Translations under genes and position numbers: made by a program | In this document: one piece after another, positions 2,889 through 46,906 of the stretch | Layout: every line of letters starts with the position of its first letter | Numbering within the stretch: the first letter of the stretch is position 1 | NCBI GenBank assembly: GCA_020854825.1 | Contig: JAHKLY010000001.1 | Span: 210,483 to 274,482 of the forward strand | Source: Candidatus Micrarchaeota archaeon | GTDB taxonomy: Archaea; Micrarchaeota; Micrarchaeia; Anstonellales; JAHKLY01 | Length of the DNA stretch: 64,000 nt | Direction: 5' to 3' | The notes under the pieces: model-generated | Database searches by the model: none | What the model was told of the DNA's origin: nothing | Seen by the model: the letters and a program-made list of their open reading frames with translations, nothing else

Positions 2889-4121
2889 TTAAATTATTGA
2901 ATAGAAAATATGGAAAGGCATTTTTATTATATCTTCTTTTTTGATTATGTCTACTCCTTCATATATGATTATTTTATATAATTTGGTATTTATTTCTTTA
3001 AATTGTTTAAATGTTTTATTTTTTGAACCAATTTCAATAAGATATTCGTCAAAAACAAAATCAATAGTTTCATGATAGAATATTTTTTCAAAATTAGCTA
3101 CAAATATATCTTCTCTCATAGTTCCTTTTAGTTCAGATTCTGGTATTGACATTTTTTTTGTATATAATTCACGTATTATAGGTATTGTAAAATAATATTT
3201 CCATTGTTTTCTTGCTACTGTTTTTCCTTTTTTATAAGGATAAACACGTTTTATTATTTCAACTTTTTCTAACAAATCTAACATTTCAGAGACAACACTT
3301 TTTGATATTCCTAAATCTTTTGCTATTGTTTCGTAACTGGTTTTTGTAGATACAGAAAGGATCAAAATAAGTCGTTCAAATTTAGATAAAGTTGAAGTTT
3401 CAATATTTCTAATTTTTGCAATATCTGAAAAAATTGCTTTTTCTACAAGATCTGCTAATGTTGATTTATCATTTTCAAGAAGGTATGGAGAATTAGTTTG
3501 TATATATTCATTAATAAGTTTTAATATATCCCATTCTTTAAGTTTATTTTGGATATAAATATCATAATGCATTGAGCTTCTTAATAGGTCTTCTGTATTT
3601 AATTTGAATTTATCCAGTAATATGTTATATTTTAAATATATAAATTCTCTAAAACTTAACATAGGTATTGATATGTAGATTGCTCTTCGTGCTAATAATT
3701 TTTTTGATTCTAAAAGATTAATTGAAGAAGAGCCACTTATATAAAATAACATTTTAGGATATTTATCATATGCTATTTTTATTTGTTCATCCCAATTAGA
3801 AATAGCATTTATTTCATCTAAAAAAATTACTGCATTTTGACCTATAATTCTTTCTGTTTCTTTTATCGCATCTAAGATATTTATTCTTAAAATAGATAGT
3901 TCTTCTCCGTGCAAATATATTCTATTATCTTCATTTGTTTCAAGATATTTTTGGAACATTAAAGTTGTTTTTCCACTTCCTCTCATACCATATAAAATAA
4001 TCATTCTTCCCTTGAGTTCATTATATATAAACCGTTTTTTATATTCTTTGTATGATTGGCTTGTTTTTTCATATTCTAATTTAGAATTTCTAATGAATTG
4101 TGTAATATTTGGTTTTTCCAT
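2889..4121 (-). CDS. AAA_14 ATPase with wHTH and DUF4143-like C-terminus
   Basis: Walker A GMRGSGKT, Walker B IFLDE, SGSSS, HTH YETIAKDLGISKSVVSEML; start moved to ATG 4121 because the upstream extension reads through a repeat array. Confidence 0.85.
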   Translation of the reverse strand: MEKPNITQFIRNSKLEYEKTSQSYKEYKKRFIYNELKGRMIILYGMRGSGKTTLMFQKYLETNEDNRIYLHGEELSILRINILDAIKETERIIGQNAVIFLDEINAISNWDEQIKIAYDKYPKMLFYISGSSSINLLESKKLLARRAIYISIPMLSFREFIYLKYNILLDKFKLNTEDLLRSSMHYDIYIQNKLKEWDILKLINEYIQTNSPYLLENDKSTLADLVEKAIFSDIAKIRNIETSTLSKFERLILILSVSTKTSYETIAKDLGISKSVVSEMLDLLEKVEIIKRVYPYKKGKTVARKQWKYYFTIPIIRELYTKKMSIPESELKGTMREDIFVANFEKIFYHETIDFVFDEYLIEIGSKNKTFKQFKEINTKLYKIIIYEGVDIIKKEDIIKMPFHIFYSII

Positions 4122-4153
4122 ATAATTAGTTTGATTCATTAGGTATTTAAATG

Positions 4154-4289
4154 TTTGTTCTTTTGAACGAACAAAAGTAGTTGTTTTTGTTCTTTTGAAC
4201 GAACAATTAATCAAAAAATAGATAAAATAAACTTATTTGTTCTTTTGAACGAACAAAAGTAGTTATTTTTGTTCTTTTGAACGAACAAA
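4154..4289. repeat. Four copies of a 22-bp palindromic unit TTTGTTC-TTTTGAAC-GAACAAA upstream of the AAA ATPase
   Basis: Copies start at 4154, 4186, 4236 and 4268; two pairs with 32-bp period, pairs 82 bp apart. Confidence 0.9.
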
Positions 4290-4675: not shown

Positions 4676-5980
4676 TCACTCATAATAAACTATTCTTTTG
4701 CCAATTCCCCATTTTTTAATTGCAGCGCCTAATTCTTTGTGTTCTTTTGCATATTCTAAAATATCTTGTTTTTTCATAAATGAATCTATTGCTTGGCGCA
4801 TTGCTTTAGCGCCTGATCTAACTCCATTTGGGTGGCCTGCAACTCCTCCGCCTGCTTGTAAAAATAGGTCGGTTCCGCCCCTGTTTATTGTTTCAGGTAT
4901 AACTCCTGGATATAATCCACCTGAAGAAACAGGCATTACATATTTAATGTTATGCCAATTTTGTTCTAAAACATGTTCTTTATCATTTTCATCTATTCTT
5001 TTTTTAACTAATGCGTCTCGTATGTTCAATTCTTCTTTATATTCACTTCTCATTTTTCCCATCCCAAATGTTCCAATATGTAATGAATCAGAGCCGATTA
5101 ATCTGGCTATTTTTGCAACAGCAAGCATTGTCATCCCATTTCTTGGATTATGTGTAAACATCCCATGTCCTGCTCTATGTGCATGAACTATTAGATTAGG
5201 GTGATGATTTCTCAAAGTTTCAAATCCTGCCCATCCGCATGTTAAAATATCTATCATAGTTATTCTTCCTCCATGATCATTTATAAATTGTGCCCTTCTT
5301 AGCATTTCATTAGATTCAGCAGACACATTGCAAACATATAATTTTTTCTCTCCTGTTTCACTTTCTACTTTATCTCTCATTTCTAAAGTTCTTATTACTC
5401 TTTCTTCAAATTTATTAAATTTCATATCTGTTAAGTTTTCATCATCTTTTACTAAATCTAATCCTCCACTCCATGCTTCATATGCATATTGTGCGTGTCC
5501 TTTAGCAGTTCTTCCAACTTTTGGTTTTACAATTGTACCACAAAAAGGTCTTTTTTTGATTTTAGCAATTTTTCTTATACCTTCAATTCCATGTTCTGGT
5601 CCTTTAAATGATTTTATGATATCTTTTGGAAATGAAATATCTAATAATCTTAAGTTTTTCAATTCTTTCATTCCAAAAATATTTCCTGCTATTGCACTCA
5701 TTATTTGTGACATATTTCCAGTTTCAAATAATCCAGAAGGATAAGCAATTTTTATTGTTTTATCTTTTGTATTAATATAAAATATATGTGGAGTTATTTT
5801 TTTTCTTAATGCTGGTGAAATACCCCCAACATCTGTCCATGTTCCGATTGATGATTCAGCAGTTATGTGTTCTGCTGCTTCTTTCAAAGTTAATTGTTTT
5901 TTTAATTTCCCTGGCTCAACATAAAATTTGCATATTAAATCATTTTCTTTTGGTTTGTATTTTAAATTTGTAAAGCCCAT
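4676..5980 (-). CDS. rbcL: RuBisCO large subunit, archaeal form III-type
   Basis: AESSIGTW, GTIVKPKVG, GGLDLVKDDENL, HAHRAGH, GKM loop 6, PVSSGGL, QAGGGVAGHP; GGTGA RBS before ATG 5980. Confidence 0.93.
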   Translation of the reverse strand: MGFTNLKYKPKENDLICKFYVEPGKLKKQLTLKEAAEHITAESSIGTWTDVGGISPALRKKITPHIFYINTKDKTIKIAYPSGLFETGNMSQIMSAIAGNIFGMKELKNLRLLDISFPKDIIKSFKGPEHGIEGIRKIAKIKKRPFCGTIVKPKVGRTAKGHAQYAYEAWSGGLDLVKDDENLTDMKFNKFEERVIRTLEMRDKVESETGEKKLYVCNVSAESNEMLRRAQFINDHGGRITMIDILTCGWAGFETLRNHHPNLIVHAHRAGHGMFTHNPRNGMTMLAVAKIARLIGSDSLHIGTFGMGKMRSEYKEELNIRDALVKKRIDENDKEHVLEQNWHNIKYVMPVSSGGLYPGVIPETINRGGTDLFLQAGGGVAGHPNGVRSGAKAMRQAIDSFMKKQDILEYAKEHKELGAAIKKWGIGKRIVYYE

Positions 5981-6072
5981 AAATATCACCTTAGTAATAT
6001 ATTTTATTAAGCTTTTTATTAGTTTGTGTTTGTTTTAAATAGAAATATAAATATATTACTTAAAATTAAATT

Positions 6073-7395
6073 GTGGAAATTACTTTTTATGGTGGAGCGC
6101 AGGAAGTTGGAAGAAGTTGTATTAATGTTCTTTCTAAAACAAAACAAATAATGCTTGACTGCGGCATAAAATTAGGGGATCCGATTGAATATCCAATAAT
6201 TCCTAAAAAAGATTTTAAACGCATTAAATATATTGTTCCTACTCATACACATCTAGACCATATAGGATATTTACCTCACATTATACAAAGGTCAAAAAGT
6301 GCTAAGATTTATGCTACAAAACCAACAAGGGATCTAATGCAGTTATTATTATCTGATTATCAAAGACTACAAGAAAAAAAAGAGTTTTCAACAAAAGATG
6401 TTGAAAAAGTTTTAGAAAAAACACAACAAGTAGAATATAAAGAAAAAATAAAATCAAAAGGAATGTTTTCCTTCATTTTATATAATTCTGGACATATTTT
6501 GGGGGGAGCAATGGTTAAAGTAGAGGATAAATGTGATTTATTATATACTGGTGATTTAAATTTAAGAGAAACAAAAATAACTGAAGGTGCTCAACTAGGA
6601 ATTAAAGCAAAAAATTTAATTTTAGAATCAACTTATGGGGGAAAAACTGATAAATTACCTTCTTTAAAAATAGCATCTCAAAATTTAATTGAATCAATTA
6701 AAGAAACTTTAATTGCAGGAGGGTATGTTTTAATTCCAACATTTGCTGTTGGGAGAGGACAAAACATAATGATGGTTATTGAAAGTTATATGAGATCTGG
6801 AGCTTTACCTAAGGTGCCTATTTACACAGATGGCATGGTGAATAGGGCAAATAGGATTTATAGGCATAATGTTATTTATGCAAAAGAAGAAATTAAAATG
6901 AGAATTTTAATGAGTGATGAAGATCCATTCAAAAGTCCTTTTTATAAAATACCACAAACAAGAGATAGAAGTGATGTTTTATCAGAACCTTGTATTATTT
7001 TATCAACATCTGGTATGCTAACTGGTGGCCCAGTTTTAACTTATTTACAAAAATTAATTGAAGATCCTAAAAATAAATTGATTATTGTTGGTTATCAAGT
7101 AGACGGTTCATTAGGTAGAAAATTGATAGATGGGGAAAAATATGTTGAGTTAGGACATGGAGAAGATAAAAAAGAATATGAAGTTAGAATGAAAGTTGAA
7201 ACTGTTCCATTTTCAGGACATTCTGATCATGATGAATTAGTTAAATTCACTAAATCTATTAAAGGATTAAAAAAAGTATTTTTAATGCATGGTGAACCAA
7301 GAAAAATTGATGAGTTAGCGCAGGATATTCAAAAACATCTTAAACAAGTTGAAATAATAATTCCAAAAAATGAAGAATCATTTAAAATTGATTAA
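6073..7395 (+). CDS. Beta-CASP metallo-beta-lactamase ribonuclease (aCPSF family, no KH domains)
   Basis: GGAQEVGRSC, THTHLDHIG, SGHILG, ESTYG, FAVGRGQ, FSGHSD, HGE. Confidence 0.92.
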   Translation: MEITFYGGAQEVGRSCINVLSKTKQIMLDCGIKLGDPIEYPIIPKKDFKRIKYIVPTHTHLDHIGYLPHIIQRSKSAKIYATKPTRDLMQLLLSDYQRLQEKKEFSTKDVEKVLEKTQQVEYKEKIKSKGMFSFILYNSGHILGGAMVKVEDKCDLLYTGDLNLRETKITEGAQLGIKAKNLILESTYGGKTDKLPSLKIASQNLIESIKETLIAGGYVLIPTFAVGRGQNIMMVIESYMRSGALPKVPIYTDGMVNRANRIYRHNVIYAKEEIKMRILMSDEDPFKSPFYKIPQTRDRSDVLSEPCIILSTSGMLTGGPVLTYLQKLIEDPKNKLIIVGYQVDGSLGRKLIDGEKYVELGHGEDKKEYEVRMKVETVPFSGHSDHDELVKFTKSIKGLKKVFLMHGEPRKIDELAQDIQKHLKQVEIIIPKNEESFKID

Positions 7396-8791
7396 ATAAG
7401 ATATCACAAAAGATCCATTCAGCACTTAATCCTAAACTTGAATTTCCTTCTCCTGCTGAACCTAATATTCCAAATTTTAAATGTTCATTTCCAGCAGAAA
7501 TTGATCCAAAGTATCTATTGTCTCTTGTTTGTAAAACTAAATCTACCTCAAATTTATCTTTATTTCCAATAGTTAAATCAGTTCTAATAACAGGACTTAA
7601 AACATAATATGTATATTTGGGATTTTTTTCTATTTTTCCATTTGCTCCGATTTGGATTGTTAATATTTCTGGAAATTGTAAAAATACTGTTGCCCCTCCA
7701 TGGATTTCTTCCCAGTTTGTAATAGTTATGAATTTGCTATCTGCATACATAGTTCCTAATCCCAGAAAGTATTTTCCATTTCCAAAATTGGCATTTTGAA
7801 AAACTAATTTAAAACCTAATTCTCCTCTTGATCTTGGTTTTATTTTTATTTTTTCAGTATCTTCTTTATAGTTTATTGTTTCGTCTCTATCTCTGTATTT
7901 TAAATTTTGATCTAATCCTGCAATAGCTGTAAAATATGTTTGCAAAGGAGTTATTTCAAATTGAAATTCACCTCTTAAATTTGTACATATAGTTGTTCCT
8001 ATAAATTCATTTATAATATCTTTAAATATTATATTTTCAGAAATTGGTTTGTAAATTGTTATTCCTGCATCTAAAGTTGCTTTTTCAAAAACTATTCCTT
8101 TATATTTTGGTTTTGAACCATCTGGACATAATGCTTCTGGATTTATTGTTCCTCTTAGAAAATATGAATTTGTTGGTTGCATAATAATGTCTGATTTTTC
8201 CTCGTTTATTGTTATAATTAAAGAAGAAACTAAAGGTTCTATCCCAAGATTATGGATTCTTTCACCAGTAACTGGATCTCTTCCAAATATTTCTAAAAAT
8301 GCTTGTCTCATGTTTATTTCATTATTACTTAATTTATTTATTATTTGGTTAGCTTGATTAACATAGATATTATCTATTCTAGATAATAAAGGAATAATTC
8401 CTTTTTGTATTTCTAATATAAAATTATTTTTGATATTTAAATTATTTGCAAAAAAAACATAATTGGCTGAATAACTTGCCATATTTTTTGAAGAATTTAG
8501 CAAATTATCTATTAAGGGCCCTACAAAACTATTCAAATCAGAACCAACCCCAACAAATTCAATACCTTCTGTTAATTCTAATATGTTTTCTTTATTTTGT
8601 CCTCTGTCATTCAATTCAATATCTAATTTTTTAATATCTACTTGAGAACTTGAAGTATTTGAATAATACGAATTATTTATATATTGTGCATTAGTAGTTT
8701 TGGGCATTATTCCTTTTAATAATGCAAAACCCATTCCAGTATACAACATAATGTTTCCAATAATCTTTATAGTTTTATTTTTAAGTTTCAT
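7382..8791 (-). CDS. Secreted protein with predicted C-terminal beta-barrel-like domain
   Basis: Signal peptide (basic N-terminus, TNA|QY); FGRDPVTG motif shared with 11346..15251; about 13 alternating beta-strands. Confidence 0.65.
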   Translation of the reverse strand: MKLKNKTIKIIGNIMLYTGMGFALLKGIMPKTTNAQYINNSYYSNTSSSQVDIKKLDIELNDRGQNKENILELTEGIEFVGVGSDLNSFVGPLIDNLLNSSKNMASYSANYVFFANNLNIKNNFILEIQKGIIPLLSRIDNIYVNQANQIINKLSNNEINMRQAFLEIFGRDPVTGERIHNLGIEPLVSSLIITINEEKSDIIMQPTNSYFLRGTINPEALCPDGSKPKYKGIVFEKATLDAGITIYKPISENIIFKDIINEFIGTTICTNLRGEFQFEITPLQTYFTAIAGLDQNLKYRDRDETINYKEDTEKIKIKPRSRGELGFKLVFQNANFGNGKYFLGLGTMYADSKFITITNWEEIHGGATVFLQFPEILTIQIGANGKIEKNPKYTYYVLSPVIRTDLTIGNKDKFEVDLVLQTRDNRYFGSISAGNEHLKFGILGSAGEGNSSLGLSAEWIFCDILFNQF

Positions 8792-8861
8792 GTATTATTT
8801 AGTGTCTTTTTGAGTATATAAATGTTTTGATAAAATTAAAAAAGGAAAAAACAGTTTAATT

Positions 8862-11339
8862 TTACAAATAATCTGGGCAATACCATACGAACCCACAGGT
8901 TACTGTACATTCGGCTTCTTCATACATAGGAATTCCTGTTGGATCAGTCCAATTAGCAAATATGGTGTAAGTACTTCGGTATGAATCTGCACCACAGTTC
9001 CATTTTATTCGTTTAATATAATTAGGAGGAATTCTTGTTGATTCACTAATAGGGAAATAATTAGGAATTACACTCCCCTCCCAATTTACTCCACCTACAT
9101 TTATAATTATCTCATCACCATTATATAAAACTCCCCATTCTCCCTCTGCACTTCCTCCTTCTTCAATTTCTAAATCTGTGCAAAAGACATCTATGTCTAC
9201 GGGTTCTGGAGGGACACATTCTAATAGTATATTTACACAATTATCATCTTCTCTTGATTCCATTACATTAAATCTTGAGTCAGCACAGATAGTAAGAATA
9301 TGGTCTTCTTCTTCCTCTATTAAATATGAATATTCATGTGTTACACTTGAAAAAGGAGCAGTTAATGCAGTTGCAAAATCTATACATGTTCCCCAAGTAT
9401 CTCCAAAAGGTCTTCCTGTATTCGGGGCTCTATGTGGTGCATGTAAAGGTAGATTTGGATTATTAGTATTAGGTAATGGAGGAACTGAATAATCTGTATT
9501 ATCTAATTCATACCCATCTACTCTTCTTAATACAACATTTGTCCAGCTTGAATTTTCAGAACAAATTCCATTTGAATAAGTGCTAATGTTAATCGTCTGT
9601 GTTTCATTTACAATACAAGGACCCCTAAATAAAATTAATGGCCCCACATGTATTTCTTCTACGTCAGCCCTAACTCGTAAGTTAGTTTGAGACTCACAAA
9701 CAATAGTTAAATTTCCACAATTATTATTTTCGTTTATTTCCTTTACTTTATTGTAAACATCAGCACACACAGTAAAGGTAATATTCATATTAACTCCTAC
9801 TGGACAAGTAAATTCATTAGTATTAATTTGACTTTGTCTGGGATTTAAATTAGGAACTTCATAATAAGCAGGCATAAAATAATGAGGTACATCTGATCTT
9901 AATATAGTGGTGGATGTATTTTCAGTGTTTAATGAACCAATATTTGAAGTATTTATGTTAATTAAAACAAGGTCTCTTTCTCTTGCATATATAATCCCAT
10001 TGCCTAAAGGACTCGTTAAACTTGCAATTAAATCAGGTCCTTGAATAATAGGAACTTCAACTTCCCATTCATTTATCGGGTCATTACAATAAGGGGAAGT
10101 AGTATCAAAATATAATATGAAATTTATTTCGTCTCCAGGAGTATATGTTAAAGAAGCTTCTAATGTTCCTTCAACTATAAATAAAAATTCACCTGGTCCT
10201 GAACCTGGAGGAGTAATTTCTATATTATAAGGAGTATCTGGAGTAAAAATAAAGTCATGATTATTTGGTATTATGTTTGTAATATTAAATGGCATAGTAG
10301 TTCTATTTAAGAATAAATGAATTATTACATTTTGTGTTTCTCCTGGATTTATGACAATTGGAGAGCTTCCACTTCCATCAGTCACATACACATTATTAAT
10401 TTCAATTTGTGGATCTGCAACTATAAATTGATAATTTAATGTTTCACTAGGATTAAACCTGAACAAATTATCTATACAATTTGTTGATCCTTGACTAGGA
10501 AGACAATACTTTGTTATAACTGAGTATCTACTATTTGTACATAATTGTCCATCTGCATATCTTTTAGAAAAATATAAACATTTAACTTCATCAAGATTAA
10601 TATCAATAACATGTGTACCAATTTCAGAAACTGTAAATGAATTTGAGTAATCTTCTATTGGGCCATTATAAAACAAAGCCCCATCAATATAAACTTTAAG
10701 ATTTCCTTGGCAAATTAAACTTACATTTACGCCAGAATTAGGATAATTTATTGTTTCATCTTGTTTTGGATAAAATCTTACATTTGTTAATTGATTTAAA
10801 AAATCATTAAAAGAATTATAATAACAGCCGCTTGAAGTGGGATATACATCTGCAAAACATCCTTCACTAGTAGAATAATATCTGTTAATTCCTTCTTGAT
10901 CAAAAACAATTTTTAAATTATTTGTGGTTCCTGGGGGAGCACAACAGCTACCTGGGGCAGAAGGATTACAACCCATTCCTTGTATTCCATTTAAATCTAT
11001 ATGTGCAGACATTCCTAAATACATTTGATTTGTTTGGATATTTTCATTTAGATTAACATCTATATTAACTTCACCCGCACATATAACTGCATTAATAGGT
11101 AAATCACTAGGTTCATCACCAGAAAGAACAGTAGAACTAGTAGATATTATTTCGCTCATATATACTTGAAAAGGATTTGTTTGAATATATGTGTGAGGTC
11201 CTGATACTGGAGGAGGGCCCGGGTTTCTAATTTGATATAATTTTATTTGAGGAAAATTAAAATTTTCAGATTCAACCGCAAAAATATTGCTAATTAAAAC
11301 TAATGTTAAAATTATCACAACTGTTTTATTTACTTTCAT
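8862..11339 (-). CDS. Secreted Cys-rich protein with CARDB/Ig-like domains
   Basis: Signal peptide (IFA|VE); two CARDB-type ends CADVYNKVKEINENNNC and CADSRFNVMESREDDNC; PDL start motif. Confidence 0.75.
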   Translation of the reverse strand: MKVNKTVVIILTLVLISNIFAVESENFNFPQIKLYQIRNPGPPPVSGPHTYIQTNPFQVYMSEIISTSSTVLSGDEPSDLPINAVICAGEVNIDVNLNENIQTNQMYLGMSAHIDLNGIQGMGCNPSAPGSCCAPPGTTNNLKIVFDQEGINRYYSTSEGCFADVYPTSSGCYYNSFNDFLNQLTNVRFYPKQDETINYPNSGVNVSLICQGNLKVYIDGALFYNGPIEDYSNSFTVSEIGTHVIDINLDEVKCLYFSKRYADGQLCTNSRYSVITKYCLPSQGSTNCIDNLFRFNPSETLNYQFIVADPQIEINNVYVTDGSGSSPIVINPGETQNVIIHLFLNRTTMPFNITNIIPNNHDFIFTPDTPYNIEITPPGSGPGEFLFIVEGTLEASLTYTPGDEINFILYFDTTSPYCNDPINEWEVEVPIIQGPDLIASLTSPLGNGIIYARERDLVLININTSNIGSLNTENTSTTILRSDVPHYFMPAYYEVPNLNPRQSQINTNEFTCPVGVNMNITFTVCADVYNKVKEINENNNCGNLTIVCESQTNLRVRADVEEIHVGPLILFRGPCIVNETQTINISTYSNGICSENSSWTNVVLRRVDGYELDNTDYSVPPLPNTNNPNLPLHAPHRAPNTGRPFGDTWGTCIDFATALTAPFSSVTHEYSYLIEEEEDHILTICADSRFNVMESREDDNCVNILLECVPPEPVDIDVFCTDLEIEEGGSAEGEWGVLYNGDEIIINVGGVNWEGSVIPNYFPISESTRIPPNYIKRIKWNCGADSYRSTYTIFANWTDPTGIPMYEEAECTVTCGFVWYCPDYL

Positions 11340-11345
11340 ATATAT

Positions 11346-14300
11346 CTACCTCAATATTTCTATTCCTATTCCCCATTGGTTTATTGGGTCTTCTTCTTTT
11401 ATTATGGAATTTTTAAATTCTCCTCTTAATCTAATTTCGAAGGATTCTCTTCCTATATTTATTTTTCTTGTTATACTTACTCCTAATGTGCCAGTTGCAC
11501 CCAATCCCAGTATATGTCTTTGATTAATCTCTTCTCTATTATAAACAGCTAATGCACTTGCATCTGCCCCAATTCCCCAGTTTTTACCTATTGGAACATC
11601 AATATTTAAATTCATATTTGGAGACATAGTTAAATATCCACCACCTGCAAGTACTCCTTCAGGAGTTGTATATTCTAAATGTGTTCCTATGCCAATTTTA
11701 ATATTATTATTATTTTTTATTGGATTAATTAAAATCATTCCCCCTCCATATAATCTTTCAATATTTTTTTCATCGTAGAATTTTACTCCTCCATATATTG
11801 CAGTTTTATCTAAAAGTTTTCCAAAAATGGATTCAGATTTAGTTAAGGGTTGGACAACAGCACCTATTCCATATCTTATTTTTTTTTCTATTTCTTTTTC
11901 ATTATTTAATATAGATTCTAAATCTAGATCTGATAATATTTCTTCTCTTAGTGCTTTTAATGTAAGTATAGTCTTTAAAGGAACTATATGAAATCCCATT
12001 TCTGCTATTGCTCTTGTAGTTAATGCTTTTTCTGAAAAATTAGTTATTTCTTTTATATCATCTCTAGTCACAATAATTTCTCCACTTTCTCCGAGTATTT
12101 CTGCTGCATATTCAGTAGTTTCAAAACCCGCTTTAAAACTATAAAAATTTATTCCGTTTTCAGAATATAGTGATTTTATAGTTTTTGTAGAAAACATTGC
12201 ACCATATGTGTATGACGGGACCACACGAATATTAACTCTAGATCTAGCTTTTCCAACCATTGCACCAGAAATAATTTCAAATCTTCCTTCACTTACTGGA
12301 TCTCCGGAGATTGGGTCTCTACCAAATAATAGTTTATATGCTTCATCAATTGTAATTCTGTTTGCAGTTAAATCAGTAAGTACTTCATCTAACATACCTT
12401 CATAATCTGTGTAAGGGTCTGATCTATCTATATCCTTAATCAAAGGTCGTAGATACTCTTCTATATTCGCAATAAAATTAGTTTTTAAATTATTGTAGGC
12501 AATTGTTCCTCCGAATTGATCATATGTAGATAAGTTAGCAACAATTGTAATGTTTTCTAATCCTTCTTTTAAATAATTCGCAGTTTCTTGATAAGAATTT
12601 AGATCAGCTCCCGTTTCTAATTGAGGAACAGTAAAAGCAACTAAAACGTTTTGTATCTCTGAAGGCATGTTAACTTCCGGCATTTCTGTTATTTTTTCTC
12701 TTGAACCTATTATTATTTTTCCAACTAATGTAGGATTATCTGCAGGTTCCATTAATCTGATATACTCATGTTCAAATGGAAGTGCATATATTTTATATTC
12801 AGTTGATGATCCTTCTTCAGGAACTTCTCCTATATTTCTTGCATCTAATGTGTAATCAATTTTTCCATCTTCTCCTGCTTTTGTTATTTCACAAGAAACT
12901 ATTTTCCCTTCAGAATTTACTACATAAAGATAAATCCATGAATTTTTTGCTTCTTCGTCTTTAATTTTATTTTCATTTAATTTATTATTTTTATCTGTAC
13001 TAAAAAATGTTCCTCCATAAAATATTTGAGTATTAAATTGTAGATTAAATGAATTATCTGTCAAATCATCTATAATTAATGTTTGTCGCCCATCTCTTGT
13101 TTGTCTTCTTTGGAATAATAATTGAACTGTTACTAAATTTTCTTCTTTTAAAGTTGTTAAATCTCCAGTTATAACTCCTTCACGTTTGTCTAATATAACA
13201 TTTGATTTACCAACAGATAATTGTAGTTTTGTAACTCCTTGTGTTAATTTATCAAAATCAAATTCAGGGACATAAAACCCATTTGCCCCAAGAGATTCTA
13301 AAGAGTTCTTTAATTTTTGTCCTTCTGGTTTTGTCCAAAAATCCCATTCTTTCCAAGTGCAGATTAAGGAGTAATTTAATCCTAATCTTCCGCCCGCAGC
13401 AGTATACATTAAGAAGAACATTCTCTCATCTTTCATATTTTCAAGTGAATTCCTAATATCTCTTTTTGTTATATTTGGATTTAATTGTTTATTTATGTCT
13501 TCAGAAGATCTGACTATATATATCCAAGCTAAATCTGTCATTTTATCTAATATTTCTCTTGATTCTTCTTTTCCTTCTAAAACAAGATTCCTCATTTTTT
13601 CCATTGTCCATCCTTTTGAATCAGCAAATTTTTCTAGTTCTCCAAGAAGTTTTTCTGCATTTATATATGCATTAATGTGGTTTTTGATAGGGTATTTTAT
13701 AAAATCTCCCATTTTTCCTTCTTTTGTCATTATTTCATTAAATTCAGTGGAGCTTATTTTGTGGTCTCCATATCTATTACTAACACCATAGGTTAAACCA
13801 CACAATATGAATGCCAATTTATACTGTTCTTGTAGATAATTAGGTATTGAAGAATAAGAAACTATATTTGGATTATTATAATAAGATTGGATAGCAGTTT
13901 TTAGATTATTATCCATGAAACTCAATTTATAAATATCTTGTAATGTTAAGTTTTCTTTATTTGCTAGTACATACAATTCTTGTAATCTTGAATTTGATTC
14001 ACCAAATGTATTTTTTAATTCCAATGCAATTAAAATATTTGGAAGATTGATAAAACCTTTGGTAACTATATCTATCATTTCAGTTGTGGGGTTTCTCCAA
14101 TCTACATCTGTTGTTATTCTTAAATCTTCTAAAGATTCGACGATTAATGGATGTAACGTATTCATACCTATCATCCATCGTCTAAAATTACTATCCTTTG
14201 TAAATTGGTTAAAAAATAAATCTTTATTTTCATTGTTTATTCTTAAGTCTAAAGTTAATTCTCCTTGTTCATTTTTGGTGATTTCATATTTGATCATATT

Positions 14301-15251
14301 TGTACCATAGTATATATCTGCATATCTTATTAAATCAAAAACAATTCCATTTCTAAATTGTTTAAGATAATCTTCAAAATCAAATGTTGTTTGATTTGGA
14401 TTACCAATATTTACGAGATATATCTTATCTTCAATTGAAATCTCGGTTTTATTTATTTGTTCATACGTTTTTCCTTGTATATTTTCATAAGAACTTCCAA
14501 TAATTCCAGCAGTTTTTGAAGCATTAAATGATACATTAGATAATGTTCCATCTCCAAAATCATACCCACTTATAATTGCATCTAAGCTGACTTTACCCTC
14601 TAGTGCTGAATTTAAAATATCAATAATAGGCATATTTGTAACTAAACTTGGTTCTGTTTTACTAGGAACAATTCCAGTTAATTTTTCGTGGGTTACAAAA
14701 CCCCTATCAAAAAATTGATCATATAATTTATCAATCTGTATTATATTATCTTTTTGTTGTGCATCAAATTCTTTTTTTTTACCTTGGATAATTATAGAGG
14801 TATGGTAGGTTCTCAGAAATTCTTCTTGTATTTTATTTGTTTTGATAGTTCTTGTTTCTTTATGGATTGCATTAAATCTACTTCCAGGATTTATTTGTGT
14901 TTGTAAAAGAGTGTATACAATTCTCTGTGCTTCAATTTCTAATGATTCAGAAGTATTTTCTAAGGCAGTTTTAATATCTTTTTTTAATGCGTCATTATTT
15001 CTAATAAAATTTTGGTTTTCAAAAAAATTCATCAAAATATCTATTTTTGATTCAATTGTTGAATGCTGATTTCCCATACCATAATCACCTTCATAATTAT
15101 TATAATTATCTCTCTTTAAAAAAGTATTTAATAGTTCCTTTTCAATTAAAGGTTGGGCAAAACTCAATGTGCTTTGAAAAAGCATAGCTCCAGCTGCTAG
15201 TTTTATAGTAAAATTTCTAAATTTTTGATTTTTAAAAAAGTGCTTTTTCAT
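11346..15251 (-). CDS. Large secreted protein with predicted C-terminal beta-barrel-like domain
   Basis: Signal peptide (SFA|QP); FGRDPISG motif; last ~300 aa are Gly/aromatic alternating strands ending QWGIGIEILR. Confidence 0.65.
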   Translation of the reverse strand: MKKHFFKNQKFRNFTIKLAAGAMLFQSTLSFAQPLIEKELLNTFLKRDNYNNYEGDYGMGNQHSTIESKIDILMNFFENQNFIRNNDALKKDIKTALENTSESLEIEAQRIVYTLLQTQINPGSRFNAIHKETRTIKTNKIQEEFLRTYHTSIIIQGKKKEFDAQQKDNIIQIDKLYDQFFDRGFVTHEKLTGIVPSKTEPSLVTNMPIIDILNSALEGKVSLDAIISGYDFGDGTLSNVSFNASKTAGIIGSSYENIQGKTYEQINKTEISIEDKIYLVNIGNPNQTTFDFEDYLKQFRNGIVFDLIRYADIYYGTNMIKYEITKNEQGELTLDLRINNENKDLFFNQFTKDSNFRRWMIGMNTLHPLIVESLEDLRITTDVDWRNPTTEMIDIVTKGFINLPNILIALELKNTFGESNSRLQELYVLANKENLTLQDIYKLSFMDNNLKTAIQSYYNNPNIVSYSSIPNYLQEQYKLAFILCGLTYGVSNRYGDHKISSTEFNEIMTKEGKMGDFIKYPIKNHINAYINAEKLLGELEKFADSKGWTMEKMRNLVLEGKEESREILDKMTDLAWIYIVRSSEDINKQLNPNITKRDIRNSLENMKDERMFFLMYTAAGGRLGLNYSLICTWKEWDFWTKPEGQKLKNSLESLGANGFYVPEFDFDKLTQGVTKLQLSVGKSNVILDKREGVITGDLTTLKEENLVTVQLLFQRRQTRDGRQTLIIDDLTDNSFNLQFNTQIFYGGTFFSTDKNNKLNENKIKDEEAKNSWIYLYVVNSEGKIVSCEITKAGEDGKIDYTLDARNIGEVPEEGSSTEYKIYALPFEHEYIRLMEPADNPTLVGKIIIGSREKITEMPEVNMPSEIQNVLVAFTVPQLETGADLNSYQETANYLKEGLENITIVANLSTYDQFGGTIAYNNLKTNFIANIEEYLRPLIKDIDRSDPYTDYEGMLDEVLTDLTANRITIDEAYKLLFGRDPISGDPVSEGRFEIISGAMVGKARSRVNIRVVPSYTYGAMFSTKTIKSLYSENGINFYSFKAGFETTEYAAEILGESGEIIVTRDDIKEITNFSEKALTTRAIAEMGFHIVPLKTILTLKALREEILSDLDLESILNNEKEIEKKIRYGIGAVVQPLTKSESIFGKLLDKTAIYGGVKFYDEKNIERLYGGGMILINPIKNNNNIKIGIGTHLEYTTPEGVLAGGGYLTMSPNMNLNIDVPIGKNWGIGADASALAVYNREEINQRHILGLGATGTLGVSITRKINIGRESFEIRLRGEFKNSIIKEEDPINQWGIGIEILR

Positions 15252-15392
15252 ACTTAATATTTGTTAAGAAGTATATAAAAATGTTTATGAATTTGTAATT
15301 ATATTCATTTGTAATTGGTTTAAATTTTAAACTAACCTTTATAAAGTTTATTTTAGTAGATTGTTTATAAAACTTATTAAAATAGAGGTGAT

Positions 15393-16082
15393 ATGGTGGT
15401 AGATACTTCAATCATTATGACTGAATTAGCAACAAAATTCGGTGCAAATGCATTAAACGTGATTTATGCTATCCTTTGGGTAATAGTAGGATTATTAATA
15501 GCTAAAATTATTGGAATTGCATTAAGACATGCATTTGAAAAGTTAGGAATAGAAAGAAAAATTAAAGAAAAGCGATTACATAATGCATTATTAGGATTTA
15601 CAATAACAGGAACAATAGCATTCTTATTTGAATTAGCAGTATTTATTGTATTCCTAGGTTTTGCAGCAGAAACATTGAATGTATTATTCTTTACAAATCT
15701 AGTTCTTACTTCAATAGAATGGATTAGAATGATTGGAATGGCAATAATAATAATTTTCATAGGTATGTTTGTAGGGGAATTATTAAGCAATAAAGTTGAA
15801 AGTAGTAAAATTGCATTTTCCAATTGGTGGAGTATTGCATTAGAAGTCTTTATTGTTTATATAACAATAATAATGGCATTAGGAGTATTTGTAGATCCAA
15901 GCACAAATACAAGAGTTTTTGAAGGAGCGATTAATCTATTGATTTATTCATTTACAATAGCAATTGCAGCAGTATTTATTGCAGTAGGATTAGGAATGGG
16001 AATTGCAATAGGTCTTGGAGGCCAAGATATTGTTAAATCTGTTTTGAAAAAGAAACAGACCGATATTGAAAAACTTTTCTAA
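15393..16082 (+). CDS. Conserved TM-helix (MscS N-terminal-like/CmpX-like) membrane protein
   Basis: Multiple TM helices; typical C-terminal GIAIGLGG motif; GAGGTGA RBS. Confidence 0.7.
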   Translation: MVVDTSIIMTELATKFGANALNVIYAILWVIVGLLIAKIIGIALRHAFEKLGIERKIKEKRLHNALLGFTITGTIAFLFELAVFIVFLGFAAETLNVLFFTNLVLTSIEWIRMIGMAIIIIFIGMFVGELLSNKVESSKIAFSNWWSIALEVFIVYITIIMALGVFVDPSTNTRVFEGAINLLIYSFTIAIAAVFIAVGLGMGIAIGLGGQDIVKSVLKKKQTDIEKLF

Positions 16083-16225: not shown

Positions 16226-16422
16226 TGGACCTGGGGGGAATTGTTCTGCGAATCAAAATTGAAGTCAAAATTCTTCGAATTTTGAGATCCTTTTTGAACG
16301 CGTTGCGTTCAAAATCTCAACGCTTCGCGTTGAACCCCCGGCCTCCTGCATTCCCGAGTCCTTTCTTTTCCCTAAAAGAAAGGCTATGCCAAGCAGGCGC
16401 GCTACCGCTGCGCCACAGGCCC
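16226..16422 (-). tRNA. tRNA-Ala(GGC) with two introns (37/38 and 58/59)
   Basis: Exons 16422-16387, 16350-16330 and 16240-16226 join to a 72-nt cloverleaf GGGCCTG...CCTGC-TTGGCAT-GCAGG...GGGGG-TTCAATT-CCCCC-CAGGTCC-A with G3:U70; introns 36 and 89 nt. Confidence 0.92.
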
Positions 16423-32739: not shown

Positions 32740-33522
32740 ATGGATTTCTTAACTGCGATAATTCTAGGTATAATTCAAGGAATAACTGAATGGCTACCTA
32801 TAAGTTCTTCTGCGATGGTTACTTTAGCTGGAAAATTAATTTTTAATTTTAATTATTCAGAAGCATTAGGTAATGCGATTTGGCTGCATGGGGGTACTTC
32901 ATTAGCAGCCATAATTTATTTTAGAAATGAAATAATCAATCTTTTCAAAAGCATTTATAAAAAAGATAGAAGCAAAGATTTATTGGTTTTTTTAAGTATA
33001 ACAACACTTTTTAGTTTTATAATCGCAGGGATATTAAGTTTATTTTTATTTTCAATTCATATTCCTGAAGTAATTTTTACATTATTTATTGGATTTTTTT
33101 TATTAATAATTGCGTTTTTACATAAAAATAGAAAAGAATCTAAAATAGAAGAAGCACTAACAAAAACAAAAGCAACAGTGGTGGGGGTATTGCAAGGAGT
33201 ATCAGTTTTACCTGGGATAAGTAGATCTGGAGTTACAGTTTCTGTGTTATTAATTCAAAATTTTTCTTTGAAAAGTTCATTTAAATTAAGTTTTTTAATG
33301 AGTATCCCTGCAACATTAGGTGCATCTATTTTTCTTCCATTACTAAAACAAGATTTTGTTATAACTGGGCCTTTAGTTTTAGGAGGAATTGTTGCATTTA
33401 TAACTGGGTTGTTAACTATAAGAATGTTGATGACTTTTGCTGAAAAAGTTAATTTTTATAAAGCAACATTTATTTTAGGTTTAGTTGTTGTATTATTAGG
33501 TTTATTTCAATTGTTTTTCTGA
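32740..33522 (+). CDS. uppP: Undecaprenyl-diphosphate phosphatase family
   Basis: QGITEWLPISSS, LPGISRSG, SFLMSIP. Confidence 0.9.
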   Translation: MDFLTAIILGIIQGITEWLPISSSAMVTLAGKLIFNFNYSEALGNAIWLHGGTSLAAIIYFRNEIINLFKSIYKKDRSKDLLVFLSITTLFSFIIAGILSLFLFSIHIPEVIFTLFIGFFLLIIAFLHKNRKESKIEEALTKTKATVVGVLQGVSVLPGISRSGVTVSVLLIQNFSLKSSFKLSFLMSIPATLGASIFLPLLKQDFVITGPLVLGGIVAFITGLLTIRMLMTFAEKVNFYKATFILGLVVVLLGLFQLFF

Positions 33523-34022: not shown

Positions 34023-34031
34023 GTGATAAAT

Positions 34032-34559
34032 ATGGCATTTAAAAATGAGATCCAATTTAAACATAAAAGTGATTCATATACATTAACTCAAGTAATTAAT
34101 ATGTTAAACTCATTAGGATATACTAGTGATAAGTTATCAAGAGATGAAAAAGCAGGCATAATTTTAGGAGAAGGGATAAAAGAGATGATACAACAATTTA
34201 ATAGAGATTTTGATATTAAAGATCAAAGTGGAAATTTAACTGATTTTGTTTTAAGTAAGATTATAGAAGCAGGTAAAATAATTAAAGCACAAAGTCAATT
34301 AAAAACTTTAAATTATTTTAAAGGAGAACCAAATGGGATGTTAGATGAAGAAACAGAATTAGCTATAAATAAATTTAAAGTGGATAATAACATCTCAAAA
34401 ATTGACGGGAAATTAGATAAAGAAACAATAAACTTATTAGATGAAAAAATAGATGTTTTAATGTCTTTAAAAGGGTATGTTCCAGTTAAGATAGATAATT
34501 CTGAATTTACTAATTTTTATTATGTAGATCAAGATGGGACATTGACTGTTTCAAGATAA
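34032..34559 (+). CDS. Peptidoglycan-binding (PG_binding_1-like) domain protein
   Basis: AQSQLKTLNYFKGEPNGMLDEETELAINKFKVDNNISKIDGKLDKET, plus a degenerate N-terminal copy (MLNSLGY...GILGEGIKEMIQQFNRD). Confidence 0.75.
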   Translation: MAFKNEIQFKHKSDSYTLTQVINMLNSLGYTSDKLSRDEKAGIILGEGIKEMIQQFNRDFDIKDQSGNLTDFVLSKIIEAGKIIKAQSQLKTLNYFKGEPNGMLDEETELAINKFKVDNNISKIDGKLDKETINLLDEKIDVLMSLKGYVPVKIDNSEFTNFYYVDQDGTLTVSR

Positions 34560-38000: not shown

Positions 38001-39062
38001 ATGCAAAAAGAAATACTTTCAACCTTACAAGCTTTAAAAAAAGCTTTAGAAACAAGTCCAGAAGATGTAGTGGTTGAATTATTAGAAATGGTTATAAAAA
38101 CTACAAATGCAGACACAGCTAGATTATGGATTGAAGACCCTGAAAAAAGAGATTATGTTAAATGTGTAGCAAGTGTTCCAATTGATTATGAAAAATGGAA
38201 AAAAATTAAAGAATTACGAGTAAGAAAATCTTTAAAAATTGTGAGTGATTCTTTGAAAAATCCAGCAAAGGTTTATGAAAAATTGATCAATGGAAATTCA
38301 AAAACAAAAGATAGTTATGCTAAAGTAACAGAACAAAAAGGAGTAAATTTAGTATGTGGTATTGAATTAGGAGGAAAACATAATACTGGATTAATAGCAA
38401 TTGATTTTGGAGAAAAACAAGTTTCTAAACAAGAGTTGGTACATGCAAAAGAAGCATTAGAAACTTCAACTACTTTAATTGGTTTATTATTTACAAATGA
38501 GAATTGGTTGACGAATTTAGAAAAATTATCCAAAATGGATGAATTAACAAGAATATATAATGTTAGAGAATATAGAACACAATTAGATAGTGAGATAAAT
38601 AAAAGAAAAAAAGGAAAAGATAAAAGTCCATTATTTTTAGCTGAATTTGATATTGATGATTTTAAACAAATAAATGATAATTATGAAAGTCATGTTGTGG
38701 GAGATATAGTTTTAGAAAGATTAGGGAAAAGAATAACAAAATTTATTGATGATAATAATCTTTCTGAATTTATGCATGCATATAGGAGAGGAGGAGACGA
38801 ATTTGCTATACTAATATGGGCTAAAAATAGAAATGAATGCAGAGATATTATATCAGAGTTATTTAAAAATTTAACAAGGAATATGAGTATAAAAAGAGAA
38901 AAAGAAACATTAACCATTCCTATAAGTATAAGTATGGGTTGTGGTATGTTTGAAGATAGATATACTTCTCAAGATTTTAAAAATACAATTGATGCACGAG
39001 TATATTATGCTAAAAAAACAGGTAAAAATAAAATTATAGGTCAAAAAGAACACAATATTTAA
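38001..39062 (+). CDS. Diguanylate cyclase (GAF-like sensor plus GGDEF)
   Basis: DELTRIYN, DIDDFKQINDNYESHVVGD, RRGGDEFAI, SISMG, YYAKKTGKN. Confidence 0.92.
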   Translation: MQKEILSTLQALKKALETSPEDVVVELLEMVIKTTNADTARLWIEDPEKRDYVKCVASVPIDYEKWKKIKELRVRKSLKIVSDSLKNPAKVYEKLINGNSKTKDSYAKVTEQKGVNLVCGIELGGKHNTGLIAIDFGEKQVSKQELVHAKEALETSTTLIGLLFTNENWLTNLEKLSKMDELTRIYNVREYRTQLDSEINKRKKGKDKSPLFLAEFDIDDFKQINDNYESHVVGDIVLERLGKRITKFIDDNNLSEFMHAYRRGGDEFAILIWAKNRNECRDIISELFKNLTRNMSIKREKETLTIPISISMGCGMFEDRYTSQDFKNTIDARVYYAKKTGKNKIIGQKEHNI

Positions 39063-44399: not shown

Positions 44400-45641
44400 T
44401 TATAAATTAATTGCCCATTTATAAAATGGAATAACATTAATTCCATTTATCTTTTTTTCTTCATTCCATGTTATTATATATTTATTTTTTGCCTTTATTT
44501 TATTTAATGCATTAACCTCTCTTTCAGTAGCTCCATTAAGTTCATAACAAACCTGAACTGCAGTGTTTTTATAATAAAAATCAATTTCATAACCATTTTT
44601 TTGATAATATGGAGTTATTCCATTAAATAATAAATGAAGAAAAACTGCGTTTTCTAATCTTTTATCCACATCCTTCATAAATAAAAATCCCTTCGCTTCT
44701 ATTAGACCATTATCTATACAATACACTTTTTTCGGATTCACACTTTGTTGTTTTAATGAAAAAGCAAACATTTTAACAAATAAAAACAAATATGTTTCTT
44801 GAAAATATGAAGAAAATCTTTCGATTGTATCGTGGGATACTTTCATAAATTTTGAGATTCTATTAAATACATGAAGGTTTGCAGTATTACTTAAATAATA
44901 TATGGCAAGTTCATTTAATTTATCAAATTCTTTTATTTTGTACCTTGAAATTATATCTCTATTTATTAAATCTAAAAAATAAGTTTCAAGAATTATTTTT
45001 TTTTCATTAGATAATACAATTTTTGGAAATCCTCCCCATTTTAAATATTCTTTTGTTTCATTTAAAATTTCATTTTTCTTAAAGATTAATTCATTTTTTT
45101 CTCCTGTTAAAATTCCCTTAAAATTAAGAAATTCCTTTAAGTCTAAAGGATAAACAGTCATATTAATATGTCTCCCTGTGAGCAGTGTTCCATATTCTTT
45201 ACTTATAAAATTAGAAACTGAAGCAGTGATTATAATTGTTTCATAATCTCCTTTTTCATGAATAGAACGCACAAATTTTTCCCAACCCGAAATTTTTTGT
45301 ACTTCATCTAAAAAAAGATAAGTTTTATTTTTTGGATTTATATTTATTTTATATGTTTCATATATTTTGTGTAAAAATTCAAGATTTAAATTTAAAAATC
45401 TTGATTCTTCAAAATTTATATACAAAATTTTTTTTGTCTCTTTTTTTGATAAAGAATTAATGAACTGTTTTATTAATGTGCTTTTACCTGATCTTCTTGG
45501 CCCCGTAATTGTTACTATCTGCCCTGTTTTTGATAATTTTTTAAGTTTTTTTAAATATTTTAGTCTTGGGACTCCACTGTCTATCTTATTTTTCCAAGGG
45601 TTCCATTCATATAGTATTTCTAAAATTTTATTTTCTTTCAT
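44400..45641 (-). CDS. AAA_14 ATPase with DUF4143 (nuclease-like) C-terminus
   Basis: EWNPW, GPRRSGKS, FLDEVQ, LLTGR, GGFP, PKKVYCIDNG, LENAVF, EIDF, QV. Confidence 0.9.
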   Translation of the reverse strand: MKENKILEILYEWNPWKNKIDSGVPRLKYLKKLKKLSKTGQIVTITGPRRSGKSTLIKQFINSLSKKETKKILYINFEESRFLNLNLEFLHKIYETYKININPKNKTYLFLDEVQKISGWEKFVRSIHEKGDYETIIITASVSNFISKEYGTLLTGRHINMTVYPLDLKEFLNFKGILTGEKNELIFKKNEILNETKEYLKWGGFPKIVLSNEKKIILETYFLDLINRDIISRYKIKEFDKLNELAIYYLSNTANLHVFNRISKFMKVSHDTIERFSSYFQETYLFLFVKMFAFSLKQQSVNPKKVYCIDNGLIEAKGFLFMKDVDKRLENAVFLHLLFNGITPYYQKNGYEIDFYYKNTAVQVCYELNGATEREVNALNKIKAKNKYIITWNEEKKINGINVIPFYKWAINL

Positions 45642-46855: not shown

Positions 46856-46906
46856 GTGTATTACAGACGGAATAGATTTAAAAAGTATAACTTCTCTTAT
46901 ATTTAT

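Follow-up and report, generated by a model that had tools for sequence, protein, structure and literature searches.

A lineage-restricted family of exported proteins with a helical FGRDP module and a β-rich, possibly barrel-forming domain in a Candidatus Micrarchaeota archaeon

In a stretch of 64,000 nucleotides from contig JAHKLY010000001.1 of a Candidatus Micrarchaeota archaeon (assembly GCA_020854825.1, positions 210,483 to 274,482, forward strand; referred to as the window in the following), two genes encode proteins of 469 amino acids (aa; P0001) and 1301 aa (P0002), which belong to a real, hitherto unrecognised and lineage-restricted family of exported proteins occurring in three related genomes. 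In both proteins, a helical module with the sequence FGRDP precedes a β-rich C-terminal domain. With a rough probability of 45%, these proteins represent an envelope family consisting of a signal peptide, the helical FGRDP module as a connector and a membrane-inserting β-barrel, which, together with the exported CARDB protein P0003 encoded between them, might form a host-contact assembly at the cell surface.

A pair of paralogous proteins in three genomes

The sequence comparisons confirmed that P0001 and the C-terminal part of P0002 are paralogues, with a similarity far beyond chance. BLASTP with composition adjustment gave an E value of 1e-12 (25% identity, 312 columns). The original prediction had aligned the 469-aa protein by eye with the C-terminal third of the 1301-aa protein and had proposed a profile alignment of the two; all peptides quoted there were found at the given collinear positions (Table 1), and the profile alignment was significant (hhalign of two alignments of three orthologues each: probability 96%, E = 4.6e-9, 307 columns, P0001 82-407 against P0002 880-1218). 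The final 60-80 residues of both paralogues lie outside the significant alignment. When the 282 stop-to-stop open reading frames (ORFs) of the window were searched reciprocally with hidden Markov models (HMMs), the other paralogue alone was matched (E = 4.8e-13 and 4.1e-10), the next E value being at least 0.13. The additional 845 residues of P0002 are located N-terminally to the helical module.

Two orthologues of P0001 (77% and 63% identity) have the same length and share the conserved N-terminus MKLK.KTIK. Likewise, two orthologues of P0002 (1318 and 1311 aa) were detected, whose tails are 78% and 74% identical to that of P0002, and the same two contigs apparently carry the orthologues of both paralogues. 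Word-seeded searches with P0001, with residues 860-1301 of P0002 and with the joint profile (A3) listed 3, 3 and 3 proteins, respectively, which were the same orthologues. An exhaustive phmmer search of 1.84 billion representatives with a single-sequence query returned the own cluster alone. Two scans of species-representative genomes yielded 380 and 122 pattern matches, none of which was confirmed; as a few degenerate peptide patterns were used, this is weak evidence of absence. The proposed FGRDP family is therefore real, but it comprises two paralogues in three related genomes so far, and the genome survey added no further member.

The original prediction also stated that the family was not a recognised one, and this held: no known family, soluble or other, was matched in Pfam, NCBIfam, PHROGs or the PDB. 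Pfam gave no family for P0001 or P0002 at E ≤ 1, NCBIfam and PHROGs gave none for the pair, and the phmmer and profile searches of the PDB gave no relevant match. Among four sub-segments, which were compared to Pfam at E ≤ 10, the sole match was ResT/TelK (E = 0.054), which is irrelevant. No match was obtained by tblastn against phage and plasmid records, and no description of such a family was found in the literature on DPANN in combination with β-barrel, outer membrane or porin.

Judged from hydropathy and from cleavage sites predicted by eye, P0001 and P0002 were shown to be putatively exported proteins without a transmembrane helix. In all six family sequences a basic n-region is followed by a hydrophobic N-terminal 10-mer (Kyte-Doolittle hydropathy (KD) 1.6-2.2) and then by A-Q; in P0001 and its two orthologues the 10-residue maximum amounts to KD 1.6-2.1 and is followed by TNA-Q. 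Gln as the first residue after the predicted cleavage site, which had been claimed for both proteins, was indeed found in both (TNA-Q36 in P0001 and SFA-Q33 in P0002) and is kept in all orthologues. P0001 possesses no other hydrophobic 19-mer above KD 1.2, and in the six family sequences the maximal 19-mer beyond residue 40 reaches KD 0.94-1.54, which is below transmembrane strength.

The helical FGRDP module

A six-frame translation of the window contains FGRDP at two places only, one in each paralogue; this motif and the following Gly (G176 in P0001) are invariant in all six family sequences. The surrounding helical module is the best-conserved stretch of the paralogue alignment. AlphaFold2, supplied with alignments of six rows (A3 for P0001 and A4 for P0002 880-1301), predicted in two separate runs four to five helices for residues ~95-180 of P0001 and for the matching part of P0002 (pLDDT, the predicted local distance difference test, 64-91). 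In P0001 the helices comprise residues 83-109, 118-137, 141-155 and 161-169 (block pLDDT 64-91 over 100-170), and in the 422-residue query of P0002 the blocks of residues 41-100 showed a pLDDT of 75-90. In these models the last helix of the module is followed by a turn made up of FGRDP. The amphipathic-helix signal was also above that of shuffled sequences (z = 2.4 for P0001 and 4.0 for the second module). A complex prediction of both helical modules (P0001 82-190 and P0002 880-1000) scored 0.01, which is no answer and weighs neither way.

The helical module, one part of the originally proposed arrangement of an FGRDP module in front of a barrel, is backed by these models (pLDDT 75-91 in both runs), and a β-rich domain does follow it; the closed or membrane barrel itself was not obtained, the β models being unreliable. 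The structure prediction, which had been suggested as a check, yielded confidence for the helical module alone, and the mean pLDDT of the two models was only 36.9 and 38.6.

The FGRDP turn superficially resembles DUF4214 (PF13946), a short helical domain of surface proteins with an LGRxPDxxG-like motif, in which a hydrophobic residue, G-R-D/E-P and a later G form a turn (cf. IFGRDPVTG and LFGRDPISG). Membership in DUF4214 is unsupported, since Pfam gave no match for the whole proteins (E ≤ 1) or for the modules P0001 82-190 and P0002 880-998 (E ≤ 10). A literature search found the string FGRDP in no paper.

Barrel-like properties of the β-rich domain

The candidate strands of P0001 and of the P0002 tail recur in the orthologues. 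AlphaFold2 drew the β part with low confidence as strands of 9-16 residues connected by tight turns, located at residues 323-388 in P0001, and long low-confidence strands were also drawn in the last 175 residues of the P0002 query. The predicted strands are rich in Gly and aromatic residues.

Strand density was estimated by a crude home-made metric, the coverage by 9-mers of which one face is entirely apolar, for which the calibration comprised three positives. According to this metric, P0001 ranked first among 41 ORFs of the window. The two C-terminal domains contained all of the top six of 407 window segments of 180 aa (0.40-0.49, the next segment reaching 0.367), the best segment of P0001 (0.489) being the highest of the window and those of P0002 reaching 0.472-0.483. 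In a control locus of E. coli with 37 proteins, OmpF (0.456), OmpA (0.433) and the usher ElfC (0.383) occupied ranks 1-3, above the Ig-like fimbrial proteins. A hydrophobic-moment shuffle test furthermore indicated β amphipathicity of the P0002 tail (z = 3.6-3.9).

The neighbours found by a language model, although weak, point in the same direction. The feature neighbours of P0001 in the ESM Atlas were clusters named 'Outer membrane protein' (score 0.91), and those of P0002 985-1301 (0.90-0.91) included the Tsx channel. For the P0001 model of the Atlas itself (pLDDT 0.46), all ten listed structural neighbours were bacterial outer-membrane barrels, with template modelling (TM) scores of 0.33-0.45 (query) and at most 0.63 (target). 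In addition, the pattern polar-x-G-x-x-Hy-x-Hy, which resembles the β-signal of the literature, was found in the last 22 residues of all six family members, compared to 2 of 39 other ORFs. The same C-terminal pattern is present in a 701-aa ORF without a Pfam match (61318-63423, minus strand), which has a low strand coverage of 0.126.

Taken together, these indirect indications agree with a barrel but are weak, and other results weigh against a membrane barrel. AlphaFold2 gave neither a confident β domain nor a closed barrel (pLDDT of the β region 20-38), and Foldseek found nothing in the PDB at E ≤ 0.001 for either model; the best-ranked rows, which did not reach this threshold (fructose bisphosphatases and small soluble barrels, TM 0.06-0.30), were regarded as meaningless. 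That the coverage metric is home-made and calibrated on three positives has to be counted here as well. In the shuffle test, P0001 reached a z of only 1.6, whereas the CARDB protein P0003, which is not a barrel, reached 3.3. The Atlas scores lie within a range that shuffled proteins reach in 4-10% of cases, and only 112-142 of the 256 features coincide. The chain ends in F in P0001 alone; its two orthologues end in N and the three sequences of the P0002 group in R. An hhalign comparison of the β-domain profile to the 37 E. coli proteins gave probabilities of at most 3.4% (OmpF, OmpA and ElfC at most 0.2%), and neither Pfam nor NCBIfam nor the PDB revealed an outer-membrane family that is similar in sequence or profile. 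None of the 40 ORFs of the 64-kb window scanned against Pfam matched Omp85/BamA or lipid-transport families. C222, C269 and C462 of P0001 are invariant in the orthologues, and three invariant Cys are unusual for bacterial barrels. Finally, images of the cultured DPANN archaeon ARM-1 show one membrane only, which is covered by an S-layer (PMC11329633).

Possible function and alternative explanations

The best explanation is that P0001 and the C-terminal third of P0002 represent envelope proteins that are exported by the Sec system via a cleavable signal peptide. In each, about 100 residues make up a helical bundle, the last helix of which ends in the invariant FGRDPxxG turn; the β domain of about 290 residues that follows consists of a dozen or more long amphipathic strands, which could close into a membrane-inserting barrel and serve as an anchor or channel, with the helical module as a connector on the aqueous side. 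P0001, P0002 and the anchorless CARDB protein P0003 may act as one cell-surface assembly for host contact, and the barrels might be inserted either into the own outer layer of the archaeon or into the membrane of a partner. That P0001 and the tail of P0002 are native transmembrane β-barrel proteins of a DPANN-type archaeon without a detectable bacterial ancestor is rather unlikely. Were this the case, the archaeon would possess a second, outer membrane with barrels of its own, inserted without a recognisable β-barrel assembly machine (BAM), or it would plant barrels in the membrane of its host, where they would act as anchor or conduit and where the exposed contact apparatus would consist of the helical FGRDP module and the CARDB protein.

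The main alternative, quite conceivable at odds below even, is an all-β surface domain that is not inserted into a membrane, for example, part of an S-layer-like lattice, a stalk or an adhesin scaffold, which is held by protein-protein or glycan contacts and in which the FGRDP module serves in oligomerisation or attachment; what the operon specifies would be a surface or host-contact assembly all the same, but one devoid of any barrel. This would suit the usual archaeal envelope of a single membrane with an S-layer, including that of the imaged ARM-1 (PMC11329633), as well as the absence of a barrel from AlphaFold2 and the fold searches, the β amphipathicity that the CARDB protein shows as well (z = 3.3) and the lack of outer-membrane biogenesis genes among the scanned ORFs of the window. 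The invariant Cys of P0001 and the 27 Cys of P0003 also fit extracellular disulfide-bonded proteins. However, neither Pfam nor NCBIfam revealed a match to S-layer, Ig-like, β-helix or adhesin families, the strands are long (9-16 residues), rich in Gly and aromatic residues and joined by tight turns, and they are more densely packed along the chain than in the Ig-like fimbrial proteins of E. coli or in the CARDB protein, at the level of OmpF and OmpA. Moreover, the language-model neighbours are outer-membrane and not S-layer proteins.

It is improbable that P0001 and P0002 leave the cell as soluble monomers and function like β-pore formers, whose β-hairpins enter a host or partner membrane on contact and thereby provide the reduced symbiont with a conduit or a site of attachment. 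Export without an anchor, the amphipathic, hairpin-rich domain and the adhesin-like CARDB neighbour would agree with such a function, and DPANN archaea are described as host-dependent organisms with cell-cell connections (PMC6349945, PMC11329633); but the connecting nanotubes of the imaged DPANN system arise from the host according to the latter source (PMC11329633). Besides, searches of Pfam and of PDB sequences and profiles gave no match to aerolysin, leukocidin, MACPF/CDC or other pore formers, and each subunit of the known β-pore formers adds a single hairpin or two, not a dozen strands. Hardly credible is an artefact, in which the similarity would merely reflect the composition of an AT-rich genome or the ORFs would not be real genes. 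A low G+C content, which is 27-29% in this genome, does enrich Ile, Asn and Lys, and similarity of low-complexity sequences is conceivable; against this stand the composition-adjusted BLASTP result (E = 1e-12), the hhalign probability of 96%, the finding that among the 282 ORFs only these two match each other's HMMs, full-length orthologues with 63-78% identity in two other assemblies and the promoter-like elements upstream of both genes.

Comparison with known systems

Membrane β-barrels count as characteristic of bacterial outer membranes and of organelles of such descent, and we know of no barrel porin that has been characterised from an archaeon. Among bacterial proteins, the family most resembles outer-membrane barrels with an N-terminal module, such as porins, Tsx, PorP/SprF and the β-domains of autotransporters. 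Common to both are a Sec-type signal without a transmembrane helix, a soluble helical module in front of numerous long, amphipathic strands, which are rich in Gly and aromatic residues and have a density equal to that of OmpF and OmpA, and a last strand with the pattern polar-x-G-x-x-hydrophobic-x-hydrophobic; these barrels are also the nearest neighbours by the language model and the low-confidence model. The differences are the lack of detectable homology, the archaeal host, the absence of BAM and other outer-membrane biogenesis genes among the scanned ORFs of the window and a chain end that is mostly not aromatic. Proteins of the OmpM/SlpA type, which combine a helical stalk with a barrel, may be compared too, but P0001 and P0002 showed no match to the S-layer homology (SLH) domain in Pfam.

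The superfamily of PopA-like lipid-trapping porins (PMC12228718) likewise consists of porin-like β-barrels; its authors mention that the Altiarchaeales, an archaeal group, may harbour a distant relative (Nat Commun 2025, PMC12228718). Barrels of the outer-membrane kind have thus been considered before in archaea for which two membranes are reported. The superfamily occurs in other organisms, and the FGRDP module has no known counterpart there. Two membranes were reported for some archaea, including Ignicoccus, ARMAN and SM1, and barrel proteins are not named in the description of these double membranes (PMC4243693). For ARM-1, a barrel-shaped docking complex of unknown composition was described (PMC11329633). 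The family can also be compared to the lineage-specific surface giants of DPANN with CARDB, β-helix or adhesin domains, considering that it has a CARDB neighbour, that a 4024-aa NosD-like ORF lies in the same window and that its members are exported, fast-evolving and restricted to few genomes; P0001 and P0002, however, lack the domains typical of these giants and show barrel-like strand statistics.

If a native archaeal family of the outer-membrane kind were indeed present, this would bear on how archaea build an outer membrane, on insertion of barrels without BAM and on how symbionts with reduced genomes attach to their hosts and tap them. On the ordinary reading as surface proteins, the locus would be a compact surface module of three genes, in which two paralogous scaffolds surround an adhesin-like CARDB protein and share a common promoter element. 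Even then, it could give access to the envelope of a lineage that has not been cultured.

Organization of the locus

The coordinates of the genes, domains and motifs are compiled in Table 1. P0002 is located two genes upstream of P0001 on the same strand, with P0003 between them. Only 6 nt separate the stop codon of P0002 from the start of P0003, and these two genes appear to be co-transcribed. A T-rich run follows the stop codon of P0003, and the start of P0001 lies 70 nt beyond P0003. The CARDB assignment of P0003 (PF07705, E = 4.2e-11, 43.4 bits at a gathering cut-off of 22.7) applies to two stretches of the protein, and the match is absent from P0001 and P0002 in Pfam. P0003 possesses a strongly hydrophobic signal peptide (KD 3.68) and 27 Cys, but no anchor.

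Table 1. Positions of features of the FGRDP locus in the window.
Feature	Position	Strand	Residues	Basis or remark
P0001 gene, 469 aa	7382..8791	-		ORF list and translation; signal peptide, short linker, helical FGRDP module, β-rich domain
Predicted signal peptide of P0001	8687..8791	-	1-35, then Gln36	Hydropathy; cleavage site inferred
Helical FGRDP module of P0001	8237..8548	-	~82-185	AlphaFold2, conservation
FGRDP motif of P0001	8273..8287	-	169-173	Translation
β-rich C-terminal domain of P0001	7385..8236	-	186-469	~11-12 candidate amphipathic strands, the last being SLGLSAEWIF
Last strand SLGLSAEWIF			P0001 452-461	
Promoter-like element AACATTTATATACT	8813..8826	-		21 nt upstream of P0001 ATG; archaeal BRE/TATA-like
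P0003 gene, 825-aa Cys-rich exported CARDB protein	8862..11339	-		Middle position; Pfam and hydropathy
P0002 gene, 1301-aa paralogue	11346..15251	-		ORF list and translation
P0002 part homologous to P0001	11349..12614	-	880-1301	hhalign; helical module ~880-990, β-rich domain ~991-1301
FGRDP motif of P0002	12312..12326	-	976-980	Translation
Second copy of promoter-like element, AACATTTTTATATACT	15270..15285	-		18 nt upstream of P0002 ATG
Quoted peptide pair			P0001 154-177, P0002 961-984	Collinear
Quoted peptide pair			P0001 274-285, P0002 1083-1094	Collinear
Quoted peptide pair			P0001 361-369, P0002 1165-1173	Collinear
Quoted peptide pair			P0001 396-402, P0002 1207-1213	Collinear

Upstream of both paralogues a common element was detected, and its pattern AACATT(N0-2)TATATACT has exactly two matches in the window, compared to 0.01 expected. 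From its sequence we infer that it is an archaeal TFB-recognition element (BRE) and TATA box, which may drive leaderless or near-leaderless transcripts of P0001 and P0002. Because matching TATA-like elements precede both genes, these are most probably natively expressed archaeal genes, and the element also speaks for Met1 as the first residue of P0001. A scan for sigma-70 promoters and terminators showed no enrichment (65 sites, compared to 57.2±6.2 expected) and is irrelevant for an archaeon.

Divergently to P0002, a multi-pass membrane protein of 229 aa is encoded (15393-16082, plus strand), which has no match in Pfam or PHROGs.

Genomic setting and further observations

The window has a G+C content of 25-31%. 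Genes of archaeal or eukaryotic type identified by Pfam encode an IF-2/aIF5B-type GTPase, Kae1/TsaD, a β-CASP RNase, a Toprim (DnaG-like) protein, an RLI/ABCE1-type ATPase, two proteins of the eRF1 family, an Lhr helicase and a RuBisCO large subunit. Because such genes occur on both sides, the locus is assigned to an archaeal chromosome. The low G+C content, an ORF of 4024 aa and the RuBisCO suggest that the archaeon is DPANN-like.

At a distance of 1 kb from the locus, a gene for tRNA-Ala(GGC) was found (16226-16422, minus strand), which fits an archaeon and forms a G+C-rich island (54%, compared to a background of ~27%). It contains two introns, one of 36 nt at the canonical site in the anticodon loop and one of ~90 nt within the T-loop. 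The intact gene was missed by ARAGORN and Rfam; after removal of the T-loop insert in silico, ARAGORN called it in 26 of 30 cases. A G3:U70 pair was recognised by eye, and the RNA fold gave a z of -4.8.

The RuBisCO large-subunit homologue (4676-5989, minus strand; Pfam E = 1.5e-81) has no small subunit nearby, and we presume that it is the archaeal form III of the nucleoside-salvage pathway. Such a pathway is mentioned for DPANN (PMC6349945).

Several other genes of the window were noted. Directly after a Pelota-like gene, an ORF of 4024 aa (46856-58930, plus strand) probably encodes a giant surface protein; its sole Pfam match is NosD, a β-helix, at residues 3296-3372. An undecaprenyl-diphosphatase of the BacA type (32740-33522, plus strand) is followed two genes on by a small peptidoglycan-binding protein (PG_binding_1, 34023-34559). 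Both genes are unusual in an archaeal genome and may be relevant to the biology of the envelope or of a partner. Signalling by cyclic di-GMP is uncommon in archaea, and a 353-aa GGDEF diguanylate-cyclase protein is encoded at 38001-39062 on the plus strand (E = 2.1e-24). Furthermore, two paralogue-like ATPase genes with AAA_14 and DUF4143 domains (2889-4214 and 44400-45641, both on the minus strand) are present in the same window.

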